Shown: positions 13,212 through 52,678 of the stretch, piece after piece
Numbering within the stretch: position 1 is the stretch's first letter
How the letters are laid out: each line of letters begins with the position of its first letter
Assembly (NCBI GenBank): GCA_007376445.1
Contig: VMGF01000001.1
Span: forward strand, 21,802 to 85,801
Reading direction: 5' to 3'
Length of the DNA stretch: 64,000 nt
Source: Parcubacteria group bacterium Gr01-1014_3
GTDB taxonomy: Bacteria > Patescibacteriota > Minisyncoccia > UBA6257 > WO2-44-18
Position numbers and translations under genes: made by a program
The notes under the pieces: model-generated
The model's database searches: none
The model's input: the letters and a program-made list of their open reading frames with translations, nothing else
Told to the model about the DNA's origin: nothing

Positions 13212-13475
13212 TTACTTCACGCGAATGGTAGTTTTTTGTTTTTCGCCACAGACGATGCACGCGAGAAAGCTGATTACTCCTTTAACATAACCGAAACCGT
13301 GCATCACCTTTTCGCAATGCAGATGAGAATCGACTCTGCCATAGTAGTACAATTGATTGTCTGGGATTCCCTCTTTTGGATTCAAGATTTTTTCCAAAAT
13401 CTCAGAAGGAATTTCCTTCAAGTCCTTACCGCCACCGCAGTCACACTTTTCCTCGTCGCCTTCCTGATCAGCCAT
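13212..13475 (-). CDS. Cys-rich small protein, hypothetical
   Basis: GGAGG SD; preceded by conserved 60-nt double-hairpin leader and TTGACA-N17-TAATCT promoter. Confidence 0.55.
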   Translation of the reverse strand: MADQEGDEEKCDCGGGKDLKEIPSEILEKILNPKEGIPDNQLYYYGRVDSHLHCEKVMHGFGYVKGVISFLACIVCGEKQKTTIRVK

Positions 13476-13493
13476 CTATGTCCTCCTTCAAAG

Positions 13494-13552
13494 CCAGCGC
13501 ACATACTTTATGTACGCGGTCGAGCATATAAAAGGAATTTCTTATGTGCTCG
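13494..13552 (-). ncRNA. conserved 60-nt double-hairpin leader element, copy 1
   Basis: near-identical to 41551-41611; hairpins CGAGCACATAAGAA-TTCCTTTTATATGCTCG and GCGCACATAA-N-TTATGTGCGC when read on minus strand. Confidence 0.45.
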
Positions 13553-13563
13553 ATTCCGCCGAT

Positions 13564-13592
13564 AGATTAGCAATTTAGGATGGATTTGTCAA
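13564..13592 (-). promoter_or_regulatory. promoter TTGACA-N17-TAATCT (minus strand)
   Basis: rc: TTGACAaatccatcctaaattgcTAATCT; identical copy at 14003-14031. Confidence 0.6.
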
Positions 13593-13593
13593 A

Positions 13594-13620
13594 TAAAAAA
13601 ACCGCTATCCAGTAGCGGCT
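13594..13620 (-). terminator. rho-independent terminator
   Basis: rc aagccgctactggatagcgg + ttttttt. Confidence 0.6.
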
Positions 13621-13976
13621 TCGTAGAATTTCACGGTCATTTTGTATATTTTATTTTTAGATGCTTCCATCGTGTAACCAACTACGTAGTCAAAAAAATT
13701 CCTACGGTTAACACTTTGATCTAGCCCCCGCCAGCCCAGATAAATACAGTGAGCAAAATCTTGACCGCTAACCGTGATCAGAAGCTTGTTCTTCTCGACC
13801 TCTTTCTTAGTTAATTCGTAGATCTTTGTTTCGAGAATGTCCCGATCTTTTCCAGAGAACTTTTCGGTAACCTTAGATCCGAGCGGATGACTACCCTTCA
13901 CAATCAGCGTGATGCCTCTTAAAATTCGGTAATTTCTGCCATCCTGATCAGTCTGAATCGGAAAACTTTCGCTCAT
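13605..13976 (-). CDS. hypothetical protein
   Basis: GGAGG SD before MSESFPIQ; own promoter (14003-14031) and terminator (13594-13620). Confidence 0.55.
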   Translation of the reverse strand: MSESFPIQTDQDGRNYRILRGITLIVKGSHPLGSKVTEKFSGKDRDILETKIYELTKKEVEKNKLLITVSGQDFAHCIYLGWRGLDQSVNRRNFFDYVVGYTMEASKNKIYKMTVKFYEAATG

Positions 13977-14002
13977 CCAGCCTCCTTCAAAGTACCGCCG
14001 AT

Positions 14003-14031
14003 AGATTAGCAATTTAGGATGGATTTGTCAA
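14003..14031 (-). promoter_or_regulatory. promoter TTGACA-N17-TAATCT (minus strand), exact duplicate
   Basis: 46-nt identity with 13553-13600. Confidence 0.6.
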
Positions 14032-14032
14032 A

Positions 14033-14057
14033 TAAAAAACCGCCGTTATAACGGCGG
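14033..14057 (-). terminator. rho-independent terminator
   Basis: rc ccgccgttataacggcgg + tttttt. Confidence 0.6.
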
Positions 14058-18463: not shown

Positions 18464-19231
18464 ATGCTTTTGCCTATCCTGATTGGAAGCTTTCTTGTCT
18501 CCTTAATCGCCTTCTCGGGCGTACTTTTTTTGGTTTTTAAGCCACAGCTGGTCCAAAAACTGGCCTTTTACCTGATTAGCTTCTCGGCCGGCACACTTCT
18601 AGCGGTTGTCTTCTTTGACCTGTTGCCGGAAGGTATTGAGTTGGCGGAAGAGATGTCCATAGAACCACATAGCGTAATGCTTTTTGGTCTGGTTGGTTTC
18701 TTAATTTTCTTTTTGATGGAAAGGCTGCTGATCTGGTATCACTGCCACGATCAGGACGTCTGCCAAGTTCACCGGTCCCAATCCACTCCCCTGATCCTGA
18801 TCGGCGACGCGGTACATAACGCTATCGATGGCGTGATCATCGCTCTCGCTTTCATCGCCGACTACAAACTGGGCATTCTTACCACGATTTCTGTGGCGCT
18901 CCATGAGATCCCTCAGGAGATCGGAGACTTCAGCGTGCTAATCCATAACGGCATGAGCCGAGGACGAGCGATCTTTTTTAATGTCATGGTCGCCTTCACC
19001 ACGGTGATCTCCGCGGTGTCATTCTATTACCTAGGCGATTTAGTTAATATCGAATCCTTCCTCCCGGCGGCCTTAGCGCTGGTAGCTGGCGGCTTCATCT
19101 ACATCGCTTCGGTGGATCTCATTCCGGAAATTCACCACGATACACGCCCACGAACCATGCTGATCACCACCATCCTCTTCGTCTTCGGTATTCTAGCGAT
19201 TTATTCAGCGGGTCAACTCTTGCCTCATTAG
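18464..19231 (+). CDS. zupT: ZIP family metal (zinc) transporter
   Basis: 8 TM; ZIP signature HEIPQEIGDFSVL and H-rich loop. Confidence 0.8.
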   Translation: MLLPILIGSFLVSLIAFSGVLFLVFKPQLVQKLAFYLISFSAGTLLAVVFFDLLPEGIELAEEMSIEPHSVMLFGLVGFLIFFLMERLLIWYHCHDQDVCQVHRSQSTPLILIGDAVHNAIDGVIIALAFIADYKLGILTTISVALHEIPQEIGDFSVLIHNGMSRGRAIFFNVMVAFTTVISAVSFYYLGDLVNIESFLPAALALVAGGFIYIASVDLIPEIHHDTRPRTMLITTILFVFGILAIYSAGQLLPH

Positions 19232-20158: not shown

Positions 20159-20500
20159 TTGAATGCTGTCTATATCGCGCTTGAAGCCTTGCGTTTCTCC
20201 AAGAAGGCTGGACATGGTGTCTGCCCGCGCCGGGTCGAGGAGCTCCGGATCGAAATCGAGAACGGAGCCGAAATCCATCCGATCCGGGTGAACGCTCTCG
20301 GCGACGGCACCTACACGATCAAGGACGGTCGCCATCGCGTGAAGGCGCACATCCTCGCCGGTTTCTCGGAGATTCTGGCAGTCATCGAGAATACAGCTAG
20401 CCGAATTAAACGTTTACTAAGAAAGGTTTTTGGTTTCCTCAGCCGCTCGAAAGAGCGGTTTTTTATTGTCGCTACTATCACATGTGATAGTACTATCTAG
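20159..20500 (+). CDS. ParB/sulfiredoxin-like nuclease-domain small protein (TTG start)
   Basis: IKDGRHRVKAHILAG matches ParB N-terminal DGxHR signature; GGAGG SD 6 nt before TTG; 3' end overlaps hairpin terminator and palindrome cluster. Confidence 0.5.
   Translation: MNAVYIALEALRFSKKAGHGVCPRRVEELRIEIENGAEIHPIRVNALGDGTYTIKDGRHRVKAHILAGFSEILAVIENTASRIKRLLRKVFGFLSRSKERFFIVATITCDSTI
20441..20466 (+). terminator. rho-independent terminator at 3' end of ParB-like gene
   Basis: ccgctcgaaagagcgg + ttttttatt. Confidence 0.55.
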
Positions 20501-20532
20501 CTGGATAGTACCGCTTTCCTATTGGAAAGCGG
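20475..20532. promoter_or_regulatory. palindromic operator cluster P1
   Basis: CTATCACATGTGATAG, CTATCTAGCTGGATAG, CCGCTTTCCTATTGGAAAGCGG. Confidence 0.5.
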
Positions 20533-20587
20533 TTGCGGGCGAGCTTGTTGTCTTGTAATATATGGTCGTACTTTGAAAGGATAATAA

Positions 20588-20995
20588 ATGGCTGAATGGA
20601 GCGATCGCTCGATCCTTCGGGCGCTTCCCAATCCCAGTACCGCGGGTTATGAGATTAAGATCAAGAATCCGGAGCTCACCTTCTTAGGAGTTAAGAACCA
20701 GCCGGATTTCGCTAATGTTTTTCTGACCGTTTATCCCGACAAACACATCATCGAGCTTAGGTCGCTGAAGTTGTATTTCCAGCAATTCCGCGACAAGGTG
20801 GTGTCCTACGAACGCTTAGTCAATGTCATCTATGATGATCTCGTGGAAGTTTATAAACCAACGCGCTTAAGGATCGTGATGGTTCTCCGACCCCGAGGCG
20901 GAATCAGCTCACGCCTTACGATAGATTCGGATTGGTCGGCGAGAGGAGGCAAGGAACAATTTAAAGACTGGGTCGGCCAGGCCGATGAATGGTAA
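20588..20995 (+). CDS. queF: NADPH-dependent 7-cyano-7-deazaguanine reductase (unimodular type)
   Basis: QueF motif ELRSLKLYFQQFRD (E-x-K-S-L-K-L-Y), size about 135 aa. Confidence 0.7.
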   Translation: MAEWSDRSILRALPNPSTAGYEIKIKNPELTFLGVKNQPDFANVFLTVYPDKHIIELRSLKLYFQQFRDKVVSYERLVNVIYDDLVEVYKPTRLRIVMVLRPRGGISSRLTIDSDWSARGGKEQFKDWVGQADEW

Positions 20996-34748: not shown

Positions 34749-35595
34749 AATATTTTCTCTAAAACTAGAGAATTGATGTTCCCACCGCACGGACGGTTTT
34801 CCCGTATACGGCGAGCTCAATGCATTTTTTGCTTTAGCTTATAAAGATCACGCAAACCGCTAGGAATAAGGTGTTCGCCTTTGCGGATCCTACGCATAAT
34901 CTCACAGAAAATTTGGAAATCGTACCTCTTTGAAGGAAATCGTAATCGATTTTCTTTGAAAAACGGTATAATTATTTCTGCCAAATCTGTTCTGTTAGCT
35001 ACTTCGAAACGATAGCAATGCTGATGATTTTCGCGATTGTCTTTTTGAAAGTAGACATTCCCGCATTTAAAGTATTCCTTTAAAGCATCCAGTATTACCT
35101 TATCCTTTTCGATAAGCTTTACGTAAAATCTAGGCTCTATCTTTACTCTTCTAGTTGTTCTGTTGATTTGATCAGGATTACGAACATAAGCAGTAAAACT
35201 GCCTTCGCCATCCACCAAACCAACGATGTAATCTTTAGTTAACATTGAGTGAGTGCCTTCATCCCGCTAATCGAGACTACTATGACTCAGCTGACTTCTG
35301 ACGCTGCGTCAGTTTTATGATACCTCGATATTGCTATCGAGAACAGCATCAGATCTCCACAGGTCACGTAAAATTCTCTTCTTAGCATCCTAGACAAGCC
35401 GTAGATAAAGTCTTCCCCGCCCTCACCACCCACTGGCAGGTCGACTGGCTTTGTTAATGTCTGGCTGTTATTTGCTTTCAGATCCTCCACCGAACACCTC
35501 GCGATGCTCGGCTATCTTTTAGCTACGTTCCGATGACGGACATCGGAAGAATGGATTTTAACCATTTAGAAAATTACGCTGCTGCGCGCTTTTAT
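34749..35595 (-). mobile_element. self-splicing-type intron (847 bp) in 16S rRNA near the helix-44 base (E. coli position about 1400), carrying a LAGLIDADG homing endonuclease ORF
   Basis: conserved CCTGTACTCAC | ... | CGCCCGTCA junction is split by non-rRNA sequence containing ORF 34817-35245. Confidence 0.7.
34817..35245 (-). CDS. LAGLIDADG homing endonuclease (intron-encoded)
   Basis: YIVGLVDGEGSF dodecapeptide motif, size 142 aa, located inside 16S intron. Confidence 0.8.
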   Translation of the reverse strand: MLTKDYIVGLVDGEGSFTAYVRNPDQINRTTRRVKIEPRFYVKLIEKDKVILDALKEYFKCGNVYFQKDNRENHQHCYRFEVANRTDLAEIIIPFFKENRLRFPSKRYDFQIFCEIMRRIRKGEHLIPSGLRDLYKLKQKMH

Positions 35596-35912
35596 TGTGA
35601 GTACAGGACTCGAGAACGTATTCACCGTGGTATAGCTGACCCACGATTACTAGCGATTCCAGCTTCATGAGGGCGAGTTGCAGCCCTCAATCTGAACTGA
35701 GGCCATTTTTGATGGGATTAGCTCCGCCTTGCGGCTTGGCAACCCTTTGTAATGGCCATTGTAGCACGAGTGTGGCCCAGGGCATCAGAGGGCCATGCGG
35801 ATTTGACGTCATCCCCGCCTTCCTCCGTGTTAAACACGGCAGTCTCCCGCGACATATAAAACGCAGGATAGGGGTTGCGCTCGTTAACCCACTTAAGGGA
35901 ACGCTTCAAAGT

Positions 35913-35944
<32 letters not shown>

Positions 35945-36067
35945 TCACGTCCTTGAGAGACGACGCACCTTTCGGCGCGTCTTCGTGACCATTTCAAGCC
36001 CTGGTAAGGTTCTTCGTTTATTGTCGAATTAAACCTCATGCTCCACCGCTTGTGCGAGTCCCCGTCT

Positions 36068-36099
<32 letters not shown>

Positions 36100-36609
36100 T
36101 CCCAGGCGGTCAACTTAACGCGTTAGCTACGCCACTCCGAGGGTCGATACTCGAAACAGCAAGTTGACATAGTTTAGGGCGTGGACTACAAGGGTATCTA
36201 ATCCTTTTTGCTCCCCACGCTTTCGTGCAATGAGAGTCAGGAGTGCTCCAGTTAAATGCCTTCGCCTTTGGTATTCCTCACAATATCAACGGATTTCACC
36301 CCTACACCGTGAGTTCTATTAACCTCTAGCACCCTCTAGTCAGGCCGTATCTTCTGCGAGCTTCCCGTTGAGCGGGAAGATTTTACAAAAGACGCACCCG
36401 ACCTCCTGCGCACGCTTTACGCCCAATAAATCCGGATAACGCTCGTGGCCTTCGTATTACCGCGGCTGCTGGCACGAAGTTTGCAGCCACTTATTCCATG
36501 GGTACAATCAATAACTTTTTCCCCATTAAAAGCAGTTTACGATCCGAAGACCTTCATCCTGCACGCGGCGTCGCTCGATCAGACTTTCGTCCATTGTCGA
36601 ATATTCTCG

Positions 36610-36652
<43 letters not shown>

Positions 36653-37419
36653 CGTTGGGGATCAGCCTCTCAGCCCCCCTACCGGTCATAGCCTTGGTGA
36701 GCCATTACCTCACCAACTAGCTGATCGGACCTAGGCCGCTCCCGAAGTGACTTGCGTCTTTCGTCTTTCGACAATATCGGACATTAGTCTATCTTTCGAT
36801 AGATTATTTCCGTCTTCGGGGTGCGTACCAAGGTGTTACTAACCCGTTCGCCACTATACTTTTATCTCTCTTGACTTGATATAATCTCATCTTAATTAAC
36901 AAAAGTACCGTTCGACTTGCATGCCTTATCCACGCCGCCAGCGTTCATCCTGGACCAGGATCAAATCCTCAAAAAAAATTACCGAACATTGAATTTATTT
37001 TAGTAAATTCACCATTCGCTAACTGTTGGGACAACTACAAAATTCTTGACTAAATTTTGACTCGATCTTGATTTTTAATTCTTGGTTGTGTATACAACAC
37101 ACTGCAATTTTCGAAGTTCAGTCGGCTGCGCTTTTTTAATAACGCATCCGGCCCGCTCTCCCTGAATCCCAGAGGGAACCGGCCGGATGAATTAAAACCT
37201 TTATTCACTTGTCGCCTATCTGTGAAAAGAAGTATATATGAAAGCGCTGTTTCGTGTCAACTGTCACAAAACAGCGAATTTTCAATTCTCAATTTTGCAA
37301 TTTTTGTCCCTTCGGGACATCTCCTGTAGGAAGACAATTAATTTACAATGAATTAATGTCCAAACAGTTTGATAATTTTATTTTAAGCATTGAATGAAAA
37401 TTGGTATTTGGAAATTGAA

Positions 37420-38753: not shown

Positions 38754-38883
38754 TCGCCCTCAGCACGCCGCTCCGACTTATGTCGGAGACCGATTTTAGG
38801 AAGACTAGCCGGCGTGCCTCCGGGATGTTCCGAAAAATTAGTTGTCCTCCGCCCTGTTATTTGGTAAATTGATAGCGTTAAAT

Positions 38884-39618
38884 ATGGAAAAAACTTTCGA
38901 CAAAATCTATCTCGAAGTAAGGGCCGGAACCGGTGGCGATGAAGCTTCGATCTTCGCCGGTGATCTGGTCCATATGTATCAAAAATATGCCGTCAAACAA
39001 GGCTGGCGTTTTAGTATTTCCGATTCCTCCCCTGGCACGATCGGCGGCTACAAGACTTTCATCGGCCGCGTGGATGGCAAGGGTTGCTATGAAGCTTATA
39101 AAAATGAATCCGGCACCCATCGCGTTCAGCGAGTCCCTGCCACGGAAAAGTCCGGTCGGGTACACACTTCCACCGCCACGGTAGCGATTCTCCCGGTCGT
39201 CGAACCAAAAGAAGTTAATTTAAATCCGAGCGATCTCGAGGTTACCTTTTCCCGCGCCGGTGGCCCGGGCGGTCAGAACGTGAACAAGATCGAATCCGCA
39301 GTCCGTATTTTACATAAACCAAGCGGAATCGTGGTTTCTTGCCGTGAAGAACGAGATCAGCGCTCCAACCGCGAACGCGCTATGGAAATGCTTTTGGCTA
39401 AACTCTATGAAATGCAACGCGCCAAAGAATTTGGCGACGTCACCGAAGCCCGCCGCGCTCAAGTTGGCACCGCCGACCGCTCTGAAAAGATCCGCACCTA
39501 CAACTTCCCAGATGATCGCATCACCGACCATCGCTTTGGCGTTAAAATCCACAACGTGGAAGAAGTTTTGAATGGCAACTTTGACGCAATTCTTAAAAAG
39601 ATAAATAAGCAGCCATAA
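38884..39618 (+). CDS. prfA: peptide chain release factor 1, lacking N-terminal domain 1
   Basis: GGQ motif (AGGPGGQNVNK), RF1 codon-recognition tripeptide PAT in RVQRVPATEKSGRVHTS; protein begins at position equivalent to E. coli RF1 residue about 110. Confidence 0.8.
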   Translation: MEKTFDKIYLEVRAGTGGDEASIFAGDLVHMYQKYAVKQGWRFSISDSSPGTIGGYKTFIGRVDGKGCYEAYKNESGTHRVQRVPATEKSGRVHTSTATVAILPVVEPKEVNLNPSDLEVTFSRAGGPGGQNVNKIESAVRILHKPSGIVVSCREERDQRSNRERAMEMLLAKLYEMQRAKEFGDVTEARRAQVGTADRSEKIRTYNFPDDRITDHRFGVKIHNVEEVLNGNFDAILKKINKQP

Positions 39619-39624
39619 AGTTTA

Positions 39625-39690
39625 CCCTGAGCCCGCCGAAGGGTCATTGCGAGCCAACATTCCAACATTCTTGAGAATGTTGGAATGTTG
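39625..39690. repeat. compound repeat after prfA: GC 20-mer CCCTGAGCCCGCCGAAGGGT followed by perfect 36-bp palindrome
   Basis: CAACATTCCAACATTC-TTGA-GAATGTTGGAATGTTG at 39655-39690; 20-mer also at 12471-12490, 54811-54830, variant 58633-58653. Confidence 0.6.
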
Positions 39691-39751
39691 TGCGTGGCAA
39701 TCTTACATTTTTGCAAATAAAAAAACCCGAATCTTATGATTAGGGTTTTTG

Positions 39752-39994
39752 TTAGTGAGGTTTACCGCAATTCTCGCATTTTGGAATAAATACGGATTTT
39801 GATTTTGAGATCTTTTTTTCTTTTAGTGTAACCAATCCGTCTCCAATCAATCCCCAAATAATACTTCTCACATTATAAGACTCAAATCTGTTCTGTATCC
39901 GATCAACCAATTCTTGAGCATCTTTTGATCTTTCAGCGCTTTGAAGTTCCGTAAGAATCGTACAAATAACTTGGCAAAGCTTAGTCGGCCTCAT
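39752..39994 (-). CDS. hypothetical small protein (C-terminal CxxC)
   Basis: ORF in island; CENCGKPH tail. Confidence 0.4.
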   Translation of the reverse strand: MRPTKLCQVICTILTELQSAERSKDAQELVDRIQNRFESYNVRSIIWGLIGDGLVTLKEKKISKSKSVFIPKCENCGKPH

Positions 39995-40233
39995 CGCGCG
40001 CCTCCTTTTCTGCTCATACCGAGGTGCTTTCTCAAAACATCGCGCAGTTGTACTTGCTGTTCTTTCGTGAGCCGCAATGAGCCATCACCAGGCAAAATCG
40101 TGAAAACATACCGATCCTTATTCGGAAGCAGGTCAGAAATGGAAAACCCATATTTCTTGAGATCACGATTGATCGCCCGCTCCTTCTTCTTCAGCTGTTT
40201 CCTCAACTCTTTCGTAATCAGAACAATACCCAT
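39991..40233 (-). CDS. hypothetical small basic protein
   Basis: GGAGG SD before ATG 40233. Confidence 0.45.
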   Translation of the reverse strand: MGIVLITKELRKQLKKKERAINRDLKKYGFSISDLLPNKDRYVFTILPGDGSLRLTKEQQVQLRDVLRKHLGMSRKGGAR

Positions 40234-40290
40234 ATTCTTTCCTCCATTCAACGAACCGCCTACAAAGTAACAGTTTCAACACAAAATCAC

Positions 40291-40362
40291 AAGTACTATC
40301 ACGCGTGATAGTGCCCACCGCTTTCCCCATAGGAAAGTACTTTCCTATGGGGAAAGCGGTGG
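40291..40362. promoter_or_regulatory. palindromic operator cluster P2
   Basis: CTATCACGCGTGATAG plus 45-nt palindrome CACCGCTTTCCCCATAGGAAAGTACTTTCCTATGGGGAAAGCGGTG. Confidence 0.5.
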
Positions 40363-40403
40363 TGATAAAAATCGGCAAATAAAAAACGACGATCTTATCG
40401 TCG

Positions 40404-40655
40404 TTATCTCGATATCTCTTCGTAAGCTTTACGCAATGCCACTACTCCTGGGCATTTCTTGGTCGGGCACTTTATATTCCAGACTGACACCTTGCACTCA
40501 TCGTCAGCACGCGGGCCATACTCTATGATTTGTCCGGACTTAACCATTTTTTCGTCCGCTTTATCAAGAATAAAGTAACAGCCACAATCATGACATTTGA
40601 GCTTTTTCCCAATCCAAGATGGCGATCTTACTTTACCCTTCTTAATAATACGCAT
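40404..40655 (-). CDS. zinc-ribbon small protein
   Basis: CHDCGC...CPTKKCPG; start set at MRIIKK downstream of palindromic operator cluster. Confidence 0.45.
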   Translation of the reverse strand: MRIIKKGKVRSPSWIGKKLKCHDCGCYFILDKADEKMVKSGQIIEYGPRADDECKVSVWNIKCPTKKCPGVVALRKAYEEISR

Positions 40656-40708
40656 CTGAAATCCTTTCAAGGTACGACCACACTCTACAATAAAAAGGCT
40701 TATTTCGC

Positions 40709-40789
40709 AAGTACTATCACGCGTGATAGTACTATCCCATGTGATAGTGGCGAATATTCCATTATCCAGCCATGGCTGGATAATGGAAT
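40709..40789. promoter_or_regulatory. palindromic operator cluster P3
   Basis: CTATCACGCGTGATAG, CTATCCCATGTGATAG, TTCCATTATCCAGCCATGGCTGGATAATGGAA. Confidence 0.5.
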
Positions 40790-40801
40790 AAAACAAGCGA
40801 C

Positions 40802-41047
40802 CTATTTGGTCGCTTGGCGTAGTTGCTTGATCAGAGTATCGAACACCGCTTTCCGCATAAAATAATGAGGAGCGTGACTGCCACTCTTCCAGCGATCAAC
40901 GGTTGGCAGAGAACAACCAAATTCGCGAGCTATATCTCTTTGGGTTAAAAATCCATTATCAATAGTCATCGCGATAATCTCCTGAAAATCTTTATCGCTT
41001 TTGGTTGAGGCATTCTCGATCTTGGCGATTAGTTCTTCTCTGGTCAC
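40802..41047 (-). CDS. helix-turn-helix DNA-binding protein
   Basis: LTQRDIAREFGCSLPTVDRWKSG HTH. Confidence 0.55.
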   Translation of the reverse strand: MTREELIAKIENASTKSDKDFQEIIAMTIDNGFLTQRDIAREFGCSLPTVDRWKSGSHAPHYFMRKAVFDTLIKQLRQATK

Positions 41048-41322
41048 TTTTTACCTCGCTTCTTTTCCTGGCAGCACGGAAACTCCTTGCAATGAATATG
41101 AATTGGATTCCCACAGCCAGGACAATGAAGATAGTGTCCGTATGGGGCTCCGCCATAGCGTCCAATCGGATCGGCGATGGTTAACTTCAGCTGACATTCG
41201 CACAGGAGGCACACGACTTTATCGCCTTCCCAGCAACAGCAGGTTGTTTTGTTTTTCTTCTGACGAATCTTCTTTTCCGCTTCTTCGATAATCAGCGGCC
41301 TTCCGACTTTTAGAATCTTCAT
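41044..41322 (-). CDS. Cys-rich small protein (about 15 Cys in 92 aa)
   Basis: AGGAGG SD before ATG 41322; CCCWEGDKVVCLLCEC...CPGCGNPIHIHCKEFPCC. Confidence 0.45.
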   Translation of the reverse strand: MKILKVGRPLIIEEAEKKIRQKKNKTTCCCWEGDKVVCLLCECQLKLTIADPIGRYGGAPYGHYLHCPGCGNPIHIHCKEFPCCQEKKRGKK

Positions 41323-41332
41323 TTGACCTCCT

Positions 41333-41533
41333 TTAGGCAACCCCGAACTCGATTCGATGGCTACATGCTTTGCAGTTGAAGACGTACTTTCTTTTACTGC
41401 CGAGCCATCTTGCGCCCTTACGAACATCGTCTCCAGCTTTCAAGACATGGATTGTTTTACAGTCCTGTCTATCGCACTGAACCTGTAATCCAACCCACGG
41501 CTTCGGACTCTCATTCTTCGCATCCAGTGGCAT
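41333..41533 (-). CDS. zinc-ribbon small protein
   Basis: GGGAGG SD; CDRQDC...CKAC; preceded by conserved 60-nt double-hairpin leader. Confidence 0.5.
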   Translation of the reverse strand: MPLDAKNESPKPWVGLQVQCDRQDCKTIHVLKAGDDVRKGARWLGSKRKYVFNCKACSHRIEFGVA

Positions 41534-41550
41534 AACGCCTCCCTTTCAAA

Positions 41551-41611
41551 CCAGCGCACATAACAATTTATGTGCGCGGCCGAGCATATAAAAGGAATTC
41601 TTATGTGCTCG
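41551..41611 (-). ncRNA. conserved 60-nt double-hairpin leader element, copy 2
   Basis: see copy 1; directly upstream of GGGAGG SD of zinc-ribbon gene 41333-41533. Confidence 0.45.
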
Positions 41612-41648
41612 GGTACCGCCAGAATAGTACAACAAAACTAACTATGCC

Positions 41649-41755
41649 GCAACTGCTTTCCTATAGGAAAGCAGTTGCTATCCAGCTGGATAGCACTATC
41701 GCGCGTGATAGCATCTTCGCTTTCCTGAGGGAAAGTACTTTCCCTCAGGAAAGCG
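41649..41755. promoter_or_regulatory. palindromic operator cluster P4
   Basis: GCAACTGCTTTCCTATAGGAAAGCAGTTGC, CTATCCAGCTGGATAG, CTATCGCGCGTGATAG, CGCTTTCCTGAGGGAAAGTACTTTCCCTCAGGAAAGCG. Confidence 0.5.
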
Positions 41756-41841
41756 AAGAGCCGTGAATAAAAAAATCCCACACATAAATTATGTATGGGA
41801 CACCGGCGCAAGCTTGCCCGCCTAGGGTGGGTTAATGCGCC

Positions 41842-42153
41842 TTATCGAGCCGATCCTTTCAACTTAGAGACTGTCGGCCTCTCGTAGGATTCGGTCAGAA
41901 CGCCGAGATCCCACTTGAAGCCGAGGGCCGTCGCAAGCCGGACCATCATCTTGATGGTGATTGGAAACTCGCCATCCAGCAGTTGGGAAAGATATTCAGA
42001 TGGAATACCAACCCGCTTCGCCAACTCATCCTTGGAAATACCCCGGGCGTCGATCGCGTCATAAACCTTACTCGAGATAGCCACATGAAGTCGACTGGCC
42101 TCGCCCTGAACCTCGCGCTCAATATTCTTCCGCTTTTTCAAGATCTCATTCAT
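41842..42153 (-). CDS. XRE-family HTH transcriptional regulator
   Basis: ISKDELAKRVGIPSEYLSQLLDGE HTH_3 pattern. Confidence 0.7.
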   Translation of the reverse strand: MNEILKKRKNIEREVQGEASRLHVAISSKVYDAIDARGISKDELAKRVGIPSEYLSQLLDGEFPITIKMMVRLATALGFKWDLGVLTESYERPTVSKLKGSAR

Positions 42154-42359
42154 TTGCCCACCTCCTTACGACGCACATGCGTGCTTCGGCCACAGCTCGG
42201 ACACTGCGCCGGATTCCGGCGGAAGATCCTGGTCGTTTCAAGTCCCTCCTGTTCAATCGTAACCGATTCAACGCGCTCAACCTTGAAACTCCGTCCGCAG
42301 TTTTGGCAGTCATATTCCTCTTCGTTCTTCGGTGCCGGCTCAAGCGGTGGAAGGGTCAT
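42150..42359 (-). CDS. zinc-ribbon small protein
   Basis: CQNCG...CPSCG; translationally coupled to XRE gene. Confidence 0.5.
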   Translation of the reverse strand: MTLPPLEPAPKNEEEYDCQNCGRSFKVERVESVTIEQEGLETTRIFRRNPAQCPSCGRSTHVRRKEVGK

Positions 42360-42418
42360 TAGCTGAACTCCTTAAAGTGCTAGCCAGATAGTACAATAAA
42401 AGATTGTACTTGGCAAGC

Positions 42419-42588
42419 TTACCCACGCACTAATTTTGCTTATTCAATATTTAAATTTTCTATCTTTAAGTCTTATCTAAATCAAAACAGCGATACGCTA
42501 GGGATCACGGCTATTCGCCGCCCGCGTATCGCTGTTCATATATCTGCAAAATTAGTGCGGGGTTATCGTTTTGTTGCTAAAATTTCGG
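42419..42588. mobile_element. MITE-like 170-bp element with 17-bp terminal inverted repeats, copy 1
   Basis: TIR CCCACGCACTAATTTTGC ... GCAAAATTAGTGCGGGG; internal palindrome ACAGCGATACGC...GCGTATCGCTGT; about 90% identical to 52441-52611. Confidence 0.55.
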
Positions 42589-42754
42589 TCGAAACCAACT
42601 CCTTCGTCGGAACGTCTCGGAGGCGGTTTTGCTTGGTTCAAAAACCGCCGAGAGAGAAGAAAAGTTTGCCGCTGGAGCAAACTTATTCTGGTTCCGAAAA
42701 GGAGTTGGTTGAGGGTACCGAAATTTTAGACAAAACTGATAAAAAATGGCCCGC

Positions 42755-43294
42755 TTACGCAGGACCATTATCTTCTCCCGAACTCTTATCCTCTTCACTT
42801 TCGTCTTCTGTTTCAACTTCCCGTCGCCAGCCATCATCTCCGCTATAAATCCATTTTCCAAAATCAATCACATTCACGACGGTGTGGGATTTATCTAAGA
42901 TAACCACGCGATGTCCCAGCTTCAACTGATCGATACACATCCTAAAAACGTCCAAAGCCTCGTATAAAAGATCGGCTCGCTCAAGGCGGCACTCCTTTTC
43001 TAGCTGATTCAATTCGGCATCAACCTTTTCATCCATCGAAAAAACAAAGAAAATCCGGCGAGATCCATCTGGCAGCTGACCACAGATTAGAGTCTCGCAT
43101 CGCCAACAATACTGCACTGGAAATCCTTCTTGGTTAATTCCAATCCGGATCTGGGTATTGCAAAGATCACAGGTCAACCAGATATCGACGTATACATTGG
43201 CGTCAGGGTCGAACTCCTTCCATGACACCGTCTTGCCTCTATCTCGCAGGCTGAGTTTTCTCGCGGCGCGGCGCGCTCTGAGCCATTCTAACAT
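42755..43294 (-). CDS. hypothetical protein with CxxC...CxxC and acidic tail
   Basis: ORF, GC-rich, CDLCNTQ...CWRCETLIC. Confidence 0.5.
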   Translation of the reverse strand: MLEWLRARRAARKLSLRDRGKTVSWKEFDPDANVYVDIWLTCDLCNTQIRIGINQEGFPVQYCWRCETLICGQLPDGSRRIFFVFSMDEKVDAELNQLEKECRLERADLLYEALDVFRMCIDQLKLGHRVVILDKSHTVVNVIDFGKWIYSGDDGWRREVETEDESEEDKSSGEDNGPA

Positions 43295-43519
43295 ATGATT
43301 TCTCCTGAGGGTTTGTGAGGTTTAAAAGTACGCCAAAATAATACAAAAGAAAACGCGTTAACACAACCCCTCCTTTATTCCGCCGAGGGCTGACAAAAAG
43401 GAAGAGCGCTCGACTTACTTTCAATGATAGTGATTAAAGAAAAGAGGTGTATTGACGCGTCAGCACAGGAAATAAAAAACCCTCCGACCTAAGCCGGAGG
43501 GCAACTTAATTCTATAGCC

Positions 43520-44011
43520 CTAATGCCTTTCGAGATGCCAAGCCTTGATACATTCCCAAATCTTCCCCGTGTCTATCCACTCGCAGGCCAGCTTGAGGGT
43601 CTCCGGAGCAATCGCTTCTGCAAGTTCCTTTGGTGTCTCTAGCGGACGCGGGTGAGCACCACAACCTGTCGAGATCCACCAAACGGATTTATTATCGAAT
43701 CCAAGACCTCGAAATGGCTTCCCGAAAACATGACCGTTAAAAAAATAAACGCCGCCTAGATATCCTCGATTTCCCAATTGAATTAGCTTTTTCCCGGTTT
43801 CGGTTTTTCTGAAACCATCCACCCACTCAAAAATCCTCTTGGCATGTTCCAAGCCGTTTTTAAGACCCTCTTCCTGACGCTTGAGCTCGTCTTGTTTCGC
43901 TTTATTTCTTTTTGCTCTCTCGCTTGCCTCTTCACGATTCATTCCTGCTAACTTCTCATCGATCAGCTTCTTCATTTCATCCGGCACAAAATCATCTTTC
44001 TCGATACTCAC
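43520..44011 (-). CDS. hypothetical protein (GTG start after AGGAGG)
   Basis: charged coiled-coil N-terminus; no known domain recognised. Confidence 0.5.
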   Translation of the reverse strand: MSIEKDDFVPDEMKKLIDEKLAGMNREEASERAKRNKAKQDELKRQEEGLKNGLEHAKRIFEWVDGFRKTETGKKLIQLGNRGYLGGVYFFNGHVFGKPFRGLGFDNKSVWWISTGCGAHPRPLETPKELAEAIAPETLKLACEWIDTGKIWECIKAWHLERH

Positions 44012-44065
44012 CCTGCCTCCTTTCAATGTGCGAATATACAACACTATATCACAATACTTTGTTTT

Positions 44066-45385
44066 CTAAGAACTGATATCGTTGATGTCGTTTTGGAATT
44101 GCTGGGCGCGGATCACTACCCGTTCGCCATAACCCCAAAGATGCCGGCGCCAATTTCCGCCAGCGTAATATTTCGCCGCCGCGCAACGCTCCACGTCTAA
44201 CTTCTTACTATAAATAGCGTCACATCCCCTAGAGGCATCCTTCAAATATAAAGCCGTCGCCACGAAAGCGTCACCGTTATTCCACGGTGAAGCCGGGCTG
44301 TGTCCGGTAATATCGGCGACTTTGTCCTTGTAAAGATTCCAGGTGGACGGGATAAACTGCGCCGGTCCCATCGCGCCGCCATAAGCCCCATCTGCATTCG
44401 CGCAGGAAACGGTGATCGTATCAGGATTTATGCCCAGCGCGGCAACCAGAGCAAGAAAGGAAGGAATGTCGCGAGTCGGATGCATCGCGGTTTTGTATCC
44501 GCATTTTCCGACATTCTGGCCCAGCGCCGATTCACGATCCAGCACGGCCAGGATCATCGCCGCCCGGATGCCAGTAGCCTGTTCGGCGAACTTGGCGAAG
44601 TCATAAGCTTTTTCGAAAGTCAGCGAACCGCCGCCGAGGAGTTCGAACAAACGGCTGCGGATCTGCGCCGCGGTTTTCTTGGTCTGCTTCACAATGTCCT
44701 GATATTTCGATTCCTGGCCCTTAGTTACCGCGAGGATCGTGGCTTTTTCCTGCTTAGTGCCTTGCAGTGTTTTTTGTTGGGCGTCGTGAGCGGCCTTGAG
44801 ACGCGCGGCATCACTCCGCTTTTCCGCGAGATCCTCTTTTTCTACTATCAATCGCCCGCGAAGATTCGTAACAGTATCCACCGTCAGAGCCAAATTACCC
44901 TGGATCGAAAGACTGTTATTTACGTTATTAAAAAAATCAGAGATGCGCGGATTTTTCAAAAGTACCTCCACCAAACCGGCCCGGTCCTTTTCGTACATAT
45001 CCCTGAGCAGCCGGTAGAGCGCGGTTTTGTTGAGTTCAAGTTTATCTTCAGTAACTTTGATCTGCGATTTATTTTCGACAATCTCTTTATCCAGCCTAGC
45101 CAAGGAAAGACCGATGGCCTTTATCTGTAAATTCAGTTTGTTGATGCGCGCGTTCAACCCACTAATTTCTCCCTGTAAACTTTTCCCTTGTTTCTGATAA
45201 AGCTCGATAGTGGCTTGATCTTTCGCAATTTGCGCCTCCAATTCAGCCAGTTGTTGTTCCAAAGCCGCCCGCTCCTCCTGGCTGGTAGCGGCCAGCGAAA
45301 ATAGGCTAGGCGTGAGACCAGCTAAGAAAATAGCTATTAAAAAACCTGCCAGATACTTTGTCATCCTTATTACTATTATAACCAA
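44066..45385 (-). CDS. lytic murein transglycosylase (MltB/SLT_2-like catalytic domain) with N-terminal TM and long coiled coil
   Basis: GAMGPAQFIPSTW motif characteristic of MltB-family lytic transglycosylases. Confidence 0.7.
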   Translation of the reverse strand: MVIIVIRMTKYLAGFLIAIFLAGLTPSLFSLAATSQEERAALEQQLAELEAQIAKDQATIELYQKQGKSLQGEISGLNARINKLNLQIKAIGLSLARLDKEIVENKSQIKVTEDKLELNKTALYRLLRDMYEKDRAGLVEVLLKNPRISDFFNNVNNSLSIQGNLALTVDTVTNLRGRLIVEKEDLAEKRSDAARLKAAHDAQQKTLQGTKQEKATILAVTKGQESKYQDIVKQTKKTAAQIRSRLFELLGGGSLTFEKAYDFAKFAEQATGIRAAMILAVLDRESALGQNVGKCGYKTAMHPTRDIPSFLALVAALGINPDTITVSCANADGAYGGAMGPAQFIPSTWNLYKDKVADITGHSPASPWNNGDAFVATALYLKDASRGCDAIYSKKLDVERCAAAKYYAGGNWRRHLWGYGERVVIRAQQFQNDINDISS

Positions 45386-45412: not shown

Positions 45413-46102
45413 TTATTTAGTCTTAGAAGCAGCTTCCGGAGCCTTAGCTACATCAGTGGCGGCTTTGACTGCGTCACGCTCGGCTTTCTTCTCTTCTGTC
45501 TCTACTTTAATGTCCTCGATCTTCACCTCGGCGGCCAATTTAGCCTCTTCCTCTTCGGTCATCGGAGCGGTTACGGTGGCGACTACGGTATCATCATTTA
45601 CCAATAGTTTTACGCCGGTTGGAATATTTAAATCTTTTACATAAACGCTCTCGCCGATCTTAGTGATCTTAGAAAGATCAACTTTAATGTTTTGCGGCAT
45701 TTCGGCCGGCAAGGCTTCTACTTCAACTTCTTGCATCGGTTTCACCAAAATACCCTTTTCACCGGTCACCGCCACGGATTCACCCACGAATTCAAATGGA
45801 ACTTTAACTTTAATCTTCTCATCAAGACGAACCTGATAAAAGTCCACGGTATTGATGGCATCGCTGACCGGATCCAATTCTACGTTTGAAATCATGGCTG
45901 GGCGCTTGTCCTTTCCCAGAACCACGTTGATCATGGAACTTTCGCCGGCCTGCTTTAAAACTTTCCGGAGATCCTTAAGAGCCACGACTAAGTGGAGGTT
46001 CTCGATGCCTTTTCCATAAAGCTCAGCCGGGATCATGCCCGCCTGACGCAAAGTCTTAACGGCTTTGCCGAATTTTTCTCTTGTTTGAACTTGTAGATCC
46101 AT
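45413..46102 (-). CDS. rplY: 50S ribosomal protein L25 / general stress protein Ctc
   Basis: REKFGKAVKTLRQAGMIPAELYGKG N-terminus, beta-barrel domain and acidic/Lys-rich C-terminal extension. Confidence 0.85.
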   Translation of the reverse strand: MDLQVQTREKFGKAVKTLRQAGMIPAELYGKGIENLHLVVALKDLRKVLKQAGESSMINVVLGKDKRPAMISNVELDPVSDAINTVDFYQVRLDEKIKVKVPFEFVGESVAVTGEKGILVKPMQEVEVEALPAEMPQNIKVDLSKITKIGESVYVKDLNIPTGVKLLVNDDTVVATVTAPMTEEEEAKLAAEVKIEDIKVETEEKKAERDAVKAATDVAKAPEAASKTK

Positions 46103-47135: not shown

Positions 47136-48401
47136 TTAAACTTCAAACCATCCTTTGAAAATATTCGCCTTACTCCGTTTCTCCAGCTCTTCCACGTTAA
47201 AATAATTTGAGAATATTTTATTCCAAAGCGCTTCCTGCTGATGATAGAGATATTTATTTTTATATTTACGCATCACCAATGCCATCACGGTATCCACGAT
47301 ATTAAAGCTCACCAGCACCTCCACGCCCGTATCGGTCTTAAAGAAATCGCCGACCGTGCCCAGACTTTCCCAAAAATCCAAACCATTCTTGAATTCCGGC
47401 ATTTTTCCCGGTATGCCGGTCAGCTCTATCTCTGCTTTTTTCCAATGCAATGCTTCCGGGTTCACGCGCGGCTCAAACAACCGCCAATCATTCTCGTCAT
47501 CCTTTGATAAATACCGCTGTACCACTAAAAATCTCGGCCTCCTGAACTCCTGCATCATCTCCGGCAAACGATGCTCTGTCACATCACCCCGCAAAAGTGA
47601 GATTAACTTTTTAGCGAACTCATGGCCATTGCCCATTTTTTGGATTATCCCGGAATAAAACTGCACCTCGTTTAAATAGTGAAGCAATAAGCAAACTAGG
47701 CGCAAAGTTTCTCCGGAGATACCCAAAAAGATTGGAATCACGAATATCACGCCCATCTCTTTGAGGTGGCTGACGTTGTGGTACTTCTTCGCCACGAACT
47801 TCTCGGCGGCTTTGGCCCACTTCGGGCTCAGCGCCTTTAAAACTATTTCACGTTCTTCGAAATCCTCAAGGCGCAAAGATTCGTATTGCTTGAAAAAAAC
47901 TTTATTCAACCAGTCAGCCTCTTCCAGAAAACGAAGCGCGCAAAAAATCTCCAACAGGTCCTCTTTTTGCAGCATCTCATCCACGTATTGATACCCTAGC
48001 GCTTTTAAAATATTTTTTGGCGGTTCGGCGATCAATAACTGCCTGGCTTTTTCATGCTTAAGAAAAAAGCCTTTCTGGCTAGGATGAATTTTTTTTAACA
48101 TATCCACGACTTTACCCGCGTCTTTTACGTGGTCGAAGCCTGTCATTTCAAGCGCTTTAAATAAATTAAGGTCATCCGCCTCAACTTTGCTGATCAAGGC
48201 ATCGAAAAGCTCCTGGGCTGGAACGCTGCGGCTAAGCCCTAGCGTATCGAGGCGCGCGGTCACTATCGCCTCGTTTTCTTCGGCGATCTTTTTGATGACA
48301 TTAATTTTCCCGGTGGCTCTTTCCATTTCGGCGTCAAATTCCGCGAAAACATGCTTATCCATGCGCAACATCCGCGCGATCTTGTCGTGATGAGGGGTCA
48401 T
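47136..48401 (-). CDS. conserved hypothetical protein (421 aa) embedded in sugar-phosphate operon
   Basis: long clean ORF between pfkB-family kinase and fba; no motif recognised. Confidence 0.6.
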   Translation of the reverse strand: MTPHHDKIARMLRMDKHVFAEFDAEMERATGKINVIKKIAEENEAIVTARLDTLGLSRSVPAQELFDALISKVEADDLNLFKALEMTGFDHVKDAGKVVDMLKKIHPSQKGFFLKHEKARQLLIAEPPKNILKALGYQYVDEMLQKEDLLEIFCALRFLEEADWLNKVFFKQYESLRLEDFEEREIVLKALSPKWAKAAEKFVAKKYHNVSHLKEMGVIFVIPIFLGISGETLRLVCLLLHYLNEVQFYSGIIQKMGNGHEFAKKLISLLRGDVTEHRLPEMMQEFRRPRFLVVQRYLSKDDENDWRLFEPRVNPEALHWKKAEIELTGIPGKMPEFKNGLDFWESLGTVGDFFKTDTGVEVLVSFNIVDTVMALVMRKYKNKYLYHQQEALWNKIFSNYFNVEELEKRSKANIFKGWFEV

Positions 48402-52440: not shown

Positions 52441-52611
52441 TTACCCACGCACTAATTTTGCCTTTTCAATATTTAAATTTTTCTATCTTTAAGTCTTTTT
52501 TAAATTAAAACAGCGATACGCTGGGGATCACGGCTATTCGCCGCCCGCGTATCGCTATTTATATATCTGCAAAATTAGTGCGGGGTTATCGTTTTGTTCC
52601 TAAAATTTCGG
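52441..52611. mobile_element. MITE-like 170-bp element, copy 2 (upstream of rpe)
   Basis: same TIRs and internal palindrome as copy 1. Confidence 0.55.
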
Positions 52612-52652
52612 CTCCTTCGGCAAGCTCAGGATTGAAATTTTAGACAAAGCCG

Positions 52653-52678
52653 ATAAAAAAGACCCCTTATTGGGGTCT
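52653..52678 (-). terminator. terminator after NUDIX gene
   Basis: rc agaccccaataaggggtc + ttttttatc. Confidence 0.6.

Follow-up and report, generated by a model that had tools for sequence, protein, structure and literature searches.

A variably present islet of small DNA-binding and zinc-ribbon genes between SLT_2 and prfA in Parcubacteria group bacterium Gr01-1014_3

Flexible islets at chromosomal integration or recombination hotspots, in which accessory genes lie between conserved pairs of core genes, are found in many bacterial pangenomes. The reduced genomes of candidate phyla radiation (CPR; Patescibacteria) bacteria are thought to be poor both in regulatory capacity and in recognisable mobile elements. 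Here we describe a locus in a 64-kb stretch of the genome of Parcubacteria group bacterium Gr01-1014_3 (hereafter the window), in which ten small minus-strand genes (named g1–g10 here) occupy the tail-to-tail junction between the gene of an SLT_2-type lytic transglycosylase and prfA. As in other hotspot islets, the core flanks are conserved, the site is empty in many relatives, the cargo varies, and the genes are short, poorly annotated and fast-evolving; unlike them, this locus lacks mobility genes, a tRNA or att site and any compositional signal, it resides in a reduced CPR host, and its cargo consists almost entirely of small DNA-binding and zinc-ribbon proteins that appear to be wired together by shared operators. 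On balance, we favour the reading that it is a flexible accessory islet at a hotspot, made up of small genes of mobile-element type in about six self-contained units run by their own regulators, and neither a prophage nor part of the core genome. A first-pass annotation had proposed something larger and less ordinary; the locus itself is real, and it belongs to a familiar kind of accessory islet rather than to a new system. It overturns no current ideas, and offers a useful, well-delimited example and a source of regulator–operator pairs.

Other described systems resemble parts of the islet. Anti-CRISPR and anti-defence operons carry an Aca-type helix-turn-helix (HTH) autorepressor, and the islet appears to resemble these acr–aca operons in its short operons of tiny unannotated genes closed by a gene for a small HTH protein, in its strong ribosome-binding sites and in the inverted repeats at its promoters; unlike them, its repeats lie upstream of the −35 hexamer rather than over the promoter core, it is chromosomal with no mobile-element backbone, its products have no similarity to curated families, and no defence system was seen near it. 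The MqsA antitoxin and archaeal MBF1 consist of a zinc ribbon followed by an XRE-type HTH, an order that recurs here as the coupled gene pair g8–g7; in contrast to MqsA and MBF1, it is split over two genes, its scores fall far under the family cut-offs, and no MqsR-like toxin was found. The Ogr and Delta proteins of P2 and P4 are 72-aa zinc-finger activators that act at dyads near −55.

The SLT_2/prfA junction and its cargo

The source genome is that of a Parcubacteria/Harrisonbacteria-like CPR bacterium from groundwater; the NCBI record of a protein identical to g9 names Parcubacteria group bacterium Gr01-1014_3, and the closest species-level relatives by ribosomal protein L25 are Harrisonbacteria-like metagenome-assembled genomes. 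Between prfA and rplY (39.7–45.4 kb) lie eleven consecutive minus-strand open reading frames (ORFs), namely g1–g10 and the SLT_2 gene, and their presence is confirmed, as is the coding signal of the ten small ones (Table 1). The first-pass annotation had treated all eleven as one island of 5.6 kb. All proteins of the window were mapped onto 80 related loci retrieved around rplY. The SLT_2 gene adjoins rplY in 77 of the 80 loci (32–67% identity) and is therefore a syntenic core gene rather than cargo, although its initial description as a coiled-coil MltB-like lytic transglycosylase holds. The islet proper comprises g1–g10 only (~39.72–44.06 kb, ~4.45 kb).

Convergent prfA–rpmE follows SLT_2 in 35 of the genomes. 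SLT_2 and prfA lie a median of ~155 bp apart (≤100 bp in 16 of the 35 relatives), compared with 4454 bp in Gr01-1014_3. Ten of the 35 carry other cargo of more than 500 bp (0.56–3.8 kb) with different contents, including a GIY-YIG-like ORF (L022), a pilin-like protein (L045), homologous proteins of 466–474 aa (L009, 12529–13953; L034, 12932–14332) and runs of small ORFs without Pfam matches (L007/L085, L008 and L034). Cargo related to the islet also occurs at the same junction, as g2- and g3-like genes in L004, a g3-like gene in L007/L085, a g7-like XRE gene in L034 and a g9-like gene in L006. As other genomes have either a tiny gap or different cargo at this position, the junction qualifies as a recurrent hotspot, with g1–g10 as an accessory, non-core block of variable presence; variable presence in relatives was one of the checks suggested at the outset. 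This provides a concrete recombination hotspot in one clade, at which small accessory genes change much faster than the core. A gene pair for a 66-aa protein and a 170-aa double-zinc-ribbon protein is common to the hotspots of L007 and L008.

The rate of change is clearest in the close relative L083, whose core proteins are 85–95% identical to those of Gr01-1014_3 (pfkB 91%, hyp421 85%, fba 85%, L25 94% and SLT_2 95%), whereas g9 is only 70% identical. The position of g10 is taken in L083 by a 166-aa protein with no BLAST similarity to g10, for which a collinear global alignment scored z=9.6 over shuffles, a score that coiled-coil composition may inflate; this points to a putative hyper-diverged positional orthologue. 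In L087, from another metagenome, g9–g8–g7 remain side by side (71%, 81% and 84% identity), and the gene upstream of them differs. A word-indexed search of 5.8 billion proteins returned g10 itself as the sole match to g10. For g9, only six homologues were found, all in close relatives, and a metagenome scan with the g9 alignment added two short contigs and nothing more; L083, L006 and L087 have their g9 homologues at the same locus. The islet cargo thus turns over and diverges far faster than the flanking genes.

The small ORFs of the islet are real genes, as indicated by their ribosome-binding sites, coupling overlaps and homologues elsewhere. A Shine-Dalgarno 5-mer lies 4–17 nt upstream of all ten islet genes against a random-position background of 3.3%, while only 16 of 50 long window ORFs have one even under a generous test (any candidate start in the first 80 codons), and an extended TTGAAAGGR motif occurs at several islet genes (7 in the window versus 2.4 expected). 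Strong ribosome-binding sites are the one standout 'foreign' trait of the islet, since most host core genes lack them. Several islet genes are translationally coupled through ATGA or GTGA overlaps, and g2, g3, g7, g8 and g9 have homologues in other genomes. The g2 homologue in L004 (36% identity) precedes a g3-type zinc-ribbon gene in the same hotspot, and the g7 homologue of L087 (84% identity) lies beside those of g8 and g9.

Most islet products appear to be small, basic and DNA-binding or zinc-binding, with isoelectric points (pI) of 8.4–10.6 in eight of the ten. The two HTH proteins announced by the first-pass annotation, one of them of the XRE family, are borne out by g4, which matches DUF3853 at 27.9 bits (cut-off 22.1) as well as HTH_28 and HTH_23, and by g7, which matches HTH_3 at 33.2 bits (cut-off 23); both also match phage transcriptional-regulator PHROGs. 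Its four zinc-ribbon or Cys-rich proteins of 66–92 aa correspond to g3, g5, g6 and g8 (83, 92, 66 and 69 aa). No domain match passed for g1, g2 or g10 in Pfam, PHROG, PADLOC and NCBIfam scans, g1 giving only a weak winged-helix hint (Stork_head, E=0.047). Sequence searches of the PDB with g4, g7 and the profile of the zinc-ribbon family described below returned nothing or generic zinc fingers only.

Two further elements noted at first sight were also recovered. The first is a MITE-like (miniature inverted-repeat transposable element) insertion in the spacer that separates the g8 promoter from the terminator of g9. It is missing from the orthologous spacer in L087 and has a 172-bp core (42419–42588) bounded by 20-nt terminal inverted repeats of 90% complementarity. 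A 94% identical copy of the core lies at 52441–52611, giving two copies in 64 kb, and no target-site duplication is visible at the junctions from the L087 alignment; 'MITE-like' is a fair description despite the two known copies and the lack of a target duplication. The second copy (52441–52660) sits in the spacer between NUDIX and ribulose-phosphate 3-epimerase genes and lacks a 128-bp internal piece of the islet copy. The other element is the double-hairpin 5′ leader of the g6 operon, immediately upstream of its ribosome-binding site. A copy of this leader at ~13476–13565 (z=−3.1; 93% identical over 46 nt) precedes an unrelated Cys-rich gene of 87 aa (13212–13475). The promoter of this 87-aa ORF (TTGACA-17-TAATCT with flanks, ~50 nt) is itself repeated almost exactly upstream of a neighbouring 135-aa ORF (13605–14012), the segments concerned being 13212–13600 and 13990–14045.

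Palindromic operators and a candidate circuit

The intergenic regions of the islet are rich in palindromes, as first described. Seven of the 14 perfect palindromes of the window with arms of at least 8 nt fall in the islet, which makes up 6.8% of the window length, and shuffled sequences contain 1.15 per window. They concentrate in three promoter regions, upstream of g2, g3 and g6. Two copies of the palindrome CTATCACGCGTGATAG lie at 40296 and 40714, and variants of it at 40732, 41696 and 20475 (5 matches versus 0.19 expected). The class A operator extracted from these sites is an 18-bp dyad, ACTATC-N6-GATAGT, with seven sites (40295, 40713, 40731, 41677, 41695, 20474 and 20492), and the relaxed pattern TATC-N6-8-GATA occurs 11 times versus 2.6 expected. 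Its inner six bases vary (ACGCGT, CCATGT, CAGCTG, GCGCGT, ACATGT and TAGCTG). ACGCGT was considered as a special site in its own right and rejected (12 in the window versus 13.7 expected). The class B operator, GCTTTCC-N4/5-GGAAAGC, has six sites versus 0.03 expected, and four of the six form abutting pairs that create perfect palindromes of 46 and 48 bp.

The first-pass annotation had likened these sites to the operators of phage lambda. The likeness to OR/OL lies in several tandem 17–18-bp palindromes beside the promoters of small HTH-encoding operons, with the letters TATCAC in some copies. It does not extend to the half-site, since across the seven sites TATCACGC is not the conserved part and no TATCACCGC-like half-site is kept; what is conserved is ACTATC/GATAGT, whereas the inner bases responsible for the likeness differ from copy to copy. 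There is also a second operator class, B, the sites lie upstream of unidirectional promoters rather than between divergent cI and cro genes, and neither HTH protein reaches a cI/Cro cut-off (Phage_CI_repr, E=0.016, 16 versus 22 bits).

Promoters were placed by reading the sequence as TTGnnn-17-TAnnnT, five of the six by eye and that of g8 alone from a consensus scan. As placed, the four operator-bearing promoters, those of g2, g3, g6 and an unlinked QueF-like gene, all have their proximal operator centred at about −46.5 (class A at g2 and g3, class B at g6 and the QueF-like gene). The operators end 2 nt upstream of weak −35 hexamers or overlap them, with further sites stacked upstream. The promoter regions of g6 and the QueF-like gene are 87% identical over 54 nt and share the order A–A′–B–(−35). 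Terminator-like sites are more frequent than expected (20 versus 6.3), and are located after g10, g7, g4 and g3.

From this arrangement, the islet may be divided into about six transcription units (g10; g9; g8–g7; g6–g5–g4; g3; and g2–g1), each with a predicted promoter of the above form and most closing with a putative intrinsic terminator. Three of these units, from the g2, g3 and g6 promoters, together with the unlinked phage-type QueF-like gene, would be controlled through common 16–18-bp palindromic operators of classes A and B. Both of the multi-gene operons that bear operators appear to end in a gene for a DNA-binding protein, g4 (HTH) in one and g1 (winged-helix-like) in the other, making g4 and g1 the candidate operator-binding regulators. 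Given this position of g4 and g1 and the shared operators, auto- and cross-regulation is most likely, with two dimeric regulators, one for each operator class, acting on the three islet units and the QueF-like gene. The XRE protein g7 and the ribbon-helix-helix (RHH)-like protein g9 would be autoregulated, each through a private palindrome in its promoter. More speculatively, the small basic zinc-ribbon proteins could be the payload; as modulators that bind nucleic acids or proteins, they would stem from mobile elements and be held under tight feedback control. With 13 operator sites in two classes at four promoters, this is an unusually legible candidate cis-regulatory circuit, open to in vitro tests although the organism is uncultured.

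The QueF-like gene, which is unlinked to the islet, has features of its own (region 20159–20995). Its 135-aa product reads FLGVKNQPDFA and lacks the catalytic Cys of preQ0 reductases; at this position Bacillus subtilis QueF reads SLCPKTGQPDFA. It is 59–66% identical to genes in large AT-rich phage contigs of IMG/VR, which have the same substitution. The gene is preceded by a mini ParB_N-like ORF (E=1e-3), and a tRNA-Ala gene is ~400 bp away. A ZIP-family zinc transporter is encoded nearby, and CxxC zinc-ribbon proteins are numerous both in this region and in the putative regulon.

The zinc-ribbon family and the origin of the islet

The products of g3, g5 and g6 align with proteins of L004 and L007 and share the signature M-K-I-x-K-x-G ... 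W-x-G-x-K-x-x-C-x-x-C-x-C-x-F-x-L ... D ... C-P-x-C. In a profile search, 662 of 1.84 billion cluster representatives were retrieved at E≤1e-3, 25 of them at E≤1e-10, and almost all of the 662 are 60–100 aa long and matched from residue 1. The median pI of the family is 9.0; no Pfam model covers its members and no solved structure was found for it. The phage family of unknown function phrog_2834 is matched by 19 of 34 family members (best E=1.9e-6), while g3 itself has no PHROG match reaching E=0.01. The CxxC...CxxC fold signature is shared with phrog_2834 and with generic small zinc ribbons; in contrast, the N-terminal MKIxKxG...W-G-K signature is specific to the g3/g5/g6 family. One member is encoded in a phage contig, flanked by the terminase and portal genes. 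Five further members that were examined lie between housekeeping genes of CPR-like chromosomes, two of the five in runs of five to seven small ORFs without Pfam matches, and a tblastn search of INPHARED phages with one member gave no match. A systematic partnership of zinc-ribbon and HTH genes was considered and rejected, as in other genomes the family occurs alone or without an HTH partner. The family, comprising g3, g5, g6 and, distantly, g8, is widespread, undescribed and present in both phages and CPR-like chromosomes, and its definition adds a set of small zinc-ribbon proteins shared with phages that lies outside curated databases.

Several points weigh against reading the locus as an accessory islet of mobile-element-type genes under their own regulators. 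Atypical composition of the cargo was sought and not found, GC content being 0.456 compared with 0.465 ± 0.015 for segments of the same size and the tetranucleotide distance being exceeded by 17 of 120 segments. The lack of relatives of g4, g9 and g10 in viral collections weakens the case for a mobile-element origin of most islet genes. Neither the A nor the B motif was found in 1.27 Mb of related loci; both classes are therefore, as judged from sequence, private to the Gr01-1014_3 genome and receive no support from conservation. The consensus promoter scan gave no excess in the region (7 versus 7.7 expected), and the transcription starts and the pairings of operators with proteins are predicted. 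Operators upstream of −35 fit activation as well as repression. Structure models were poor (predicted local distance difference test, pLDDT, of 58 and 69) and yielded no fold matches.

That the block is a decayed prophage or the immunity region of an integrated plasmid, as offered in the first-pass annotation, is not shown and we consider it unlikely. Under this explanation a temperate element would have left its HTH proteins as former repressors and its palindromes as former immunity operators, which agrees with the matches of g4 and g7 to phage regulators, the match of the zinc-ribbon family to phrog_2834 with one member in a phage packaging module, the similarity of the co-regulated QueF-like gene to genes of large phage contigs, the strong ribosome-binding sites atypical of the host and the variable presence of the block. 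However, integrase, recombinase and structural phage genes, whose absence had been noted from the start, were not found among Pfam hits of called genes within 10 kb on each side (the rest of the window was scanned non-exhaustively), and no integrase or recombinase is present among the Pfam, PHROG and NCBIfam matches of the islet proteins. The att-like direct repeats proposed as a check at the outset were also sought, and the borders share no 8–9-mers except A-rich terminator tails. Composition is typical of the host, IMG/VR scans returned no relatives of g4, g9 or g10 and generic HTH core matches only for g7, and INPHARED phages lack a match to the zinc-ribbon member searched; the tandem-operator DNA pattern gave one chance-like hit in IMG/VR, in an unrelated context. 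All genes are co-oriented, with no divergent repressor/cro arrangement. Several species have inherited g9–g8–g7 at one chromosomal site, which speaks for a long-resident block and against a recent prophage. The phage link of the islet is, as far as can be read from these matches, real but indirect, resting on phrog_2834 and the putatively co-regulated QueF-like gene.

Some of the same evidence bears on a lineage-specific host regulon. On this reading the regulators and small zinc proteins would be native to the clade and fast-evolving, located at a permissive junction of convergent genes and perhaps tied to a physiological signal such as zinc. Host-typical GC and tetranucleotide content, the inheritance of g9, g8 and g7 at the same site in relatives, the recurrence of the operators at the unlinked chromosomal QueF-like gene, a ZIP zinc transporter (18464–19231) ~1.2 kb from this second operator array, the many CxxC proteins and the position of zinc-ribbon members between housekeeping genes elsewhere all fit such a regulon. 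It nevertheless seems quite unlikely, as most relatives lack the block at the SLT_2/prfA junction, its divergence is extreme compared with the flanks, and the zinc-ribbon family and the QueF-like gene have phage links; no Zur- or Fur-like protein was seen, and no metal-box was recognisable, on inspection only.

The first-pass annotation had also suggested a self-contained regulatory or defence module. Its regulatory part is retained in the predicted organisation of the islet, whereas defence found no support, as PADLOC returned no system-specific effector and only HTH accessory models for g4 and g7 (PDC-M64B/C, RmrA and control protein). We hold it improbable that the islet is an undescribed, self-contained conflict module, acting between phage and host or host and symbiont, in which zinc-ribbon effectors or Ogr-like regulators would be governed by a two-operator, multi-regulator feedback that also commands the Cys-less QueF-like protein, with a possible link to 7-deazaguanine metabolism. 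A literature search found nothing specific.

In a mechanistic variant of the favoured islet reading, to which we give similarly little credence, the zinc-ribbon proteins rather than the HTH proteins would bind the dyads upstream of −35 and activate transcription, as a cascade of Ogr/Delta-like activators. Consistent with this, the operators lie at weak −35 hexamers and all four promoters have their proximal site centred at about −46.5; the zinc-ribbon family is basic (median pI 9.0), and g8 matches Ogr_Delta weakly (E=0.0095). Against it, the g8 match to Ogr_Delta (PF04606) reaches 16.3 bits, under the Pfam gathering threshold of 26.3, the model is unmatched by any other member of the family, and the family occurs elsewhere without similar operator arrays.

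A toxin–antitoxin or anti-phage system, with g8 and g7 as a split MqsA-like antitoxin, other zinc-ribbon/HTH pairs as analogues and neighbouring small proteins as toxins or effectors, is very improbable, for although concatenated g8+g7 match MqsA TIGR03830 (E=4e-4) and aMBF1 (E=2e-3) across both ribbon and HTH, g7 matches HigA-type antitoxin and PADLOC HTH models, and genes are translationally coupled in pairs, the TIGR03830 score is 20.2 against a curated cut-off of 61.8 bits, Pfam, NCBIfam and PADLOC brought up neither an effector nor a toxin-like protein of the MqsR, RelE or any other type, and the zinc-ribbon family elsewhere occurs alone or without an HTH partner, leaving what appears to be an architectural resemblance only.

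Feature coordinates and other observations in the window

Table 1 Features of the accessory islet, its flanks and the unlinked QueF-like gene (window coordinates; pI, isoelectric point; MFE, minimum free energy).
Feature	Coordinates	Strand	Details
QueF-like promoter and gene	20474–20995	+	A 20474–20491; A′ 20492–20509; B 20510–20533; −35 TTGCGG 20533–20538; 17-nt spacer; −10 TAATAT 20556–20561
QueF-like gene	20588–20995	+	135 aa; unlinked to islet; PF14489 E=3e-20
prfA	38842–39618	+	Left flank of region
g1	39752–39994	−	80 aa, pI 9.2; helical, winged-helix-like; Cys7/Cys11 and C-terminal CxxC; AAGGAGG 7 nt upstream; start overlaps g2 stop
g2	39991–40233	−	80 aa from ATG with GGAGG, pI 10.6; no known domain; ORF
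g2 promoter region	40264–40362	−	−10 TACTTT 40264–40269; 17-nt spacer; −35 TTGTGA 40287–40292; by eye
g2 operators	40295–40312; 40315–40362	−	A ACTATCACGCGTGATAGT 40295–40312; 48-bp perfect palindrome of two B sites 40315–40362; from sequence
Predicted intrinsic terminator after g3	40385–40405	−	Terminator scan
g3	40404–40655	−	83 aa; small zinc-ribbon protein, putatively monocistronic; CxxC...CxxC family alignment
g3 promoter region	40682–40790	−	−10 TAGAGT 40682–40687; 17-nt spacer; −35 TTGCGA 40705–40710; by eye
g3 operators	40713–40748; 40755–40790	−	Abutting A sites 40713–40730 and 40731–40748; 36-bp perfect palindrome 40755–40790; from sequence
Predicted intrinsic terminator after g4	40794–40816	−	Terminator scan
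g4	40802–41047	−	81-aa HTH protein (DUF3853/HTH_28-like); last of g6–g5–g4; GTG start overlaps g5 stop
g5	41044–41322	−	92 aa, 11 Cys; g3 zinc-ribbon family; family alignment
g6	41333–41533	−	66 aa; g3 zinc-ribbon family; family alignment
g6-operon 5′ leader	41534–41625	−	Two stable hairpins; MFE −34.5 kcal/mol, z=−3.5
g6 promoter region	41624–41759	−	−10 TACTAT 41624–41629; 17-nt spacer; −35 TTGCGG 41647–41652; by eye
g6 operators	41649–41759	−	B 41649–41678 overlapping −35; A-type 41677–41694 and 41695–41712; 46-bp palindrome of two B sites 41714–41759; from sequence
Predicted intrinsic terminator after g7	41775–41801	−	Terminator scan
g7	41842–42153	−	103-aa XRE-family HTH; start overlaps g8 stop (ATGA)
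g8	42150–42359	−	69-aa CxxC...CxxC zinc ribbon; distant g3-family member; 81% identical in L087
g8–g7 promoter	42388–42416	−	TTGCCA-17-TACTAT; −35 42411–42416; −10 42388–42393; consensus scan
g8–g7 private palindrome	42390–42410	−	AGTACAAT-N5-ATTGTACT; covers spacer and −10
MITE-like insertion	42418–42735		319 bp; absent from g9–g8 spacer of L087
g9	42755–43294	−	179 aa; N-terminal helix, CxxC...CxxC zinc ribbon, RHH-like segment (RHH_3 weak, E=0.006), acidic tail; putatively monocistronic
g9 promoter	43338–43366	−	−35 43361–43366; −10 43338–43343; hand-called
Predicted intrinsic terminator after g10	43479–43502	−	Terminator scan
g10	43520–44011	−	163 aa from GTG with GGAGG; long coiled-coil helix and small C-terminal domain; model pLDDT 69
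SLT_2 (MltB-like) lytic transglycosylase	44066–45364	−	439 aa, N-terminal coiled coil; SLT_2 E=1.6e-10; core, outside islet
rplY	45413–46102	−	Right flank of region

Beyond the islet, a 421-aa protein without a Pfam match (47136–48401), encoded between pfkB and fba, is syntenic in 28 of the 80 related genomes and is an uncharacterised core protein of the clade. The 16S rRNA gene (35550–36976) is followed by a match to domains D1–D4 of a group II intron (35254–35345) and an ORF for a LAGLIDADG endonuclease (34817–35245); rRNA loci of CPR bacteria commonly carry such insertions. At 244–258 aa, release factor 1 is shorter than the ~360 aa of the canonical protein, and the matches in relatives have the same length, so that the truncation seems typical of the clade.

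A perfect palindrome of 30–42 bp with the core ATTCYAACRTTCT..AGAAYGTTRGAAT recurs in three species, after prfA in Gr01-1014_3 (39655–39690), in the hotspot cargo of L034 (15001–15042) and after a tRNA-synthetase-like gene in L060 (14148–14173). Its 36-bp copy in the window was considered as a marker of the islet edge, given the similar one inside the L034 cargo, and rejected, as the palindrome of L060 lies between unrelated genes. It may be a transcription-factor site or an element resembling repetitive extragenic palindromes.

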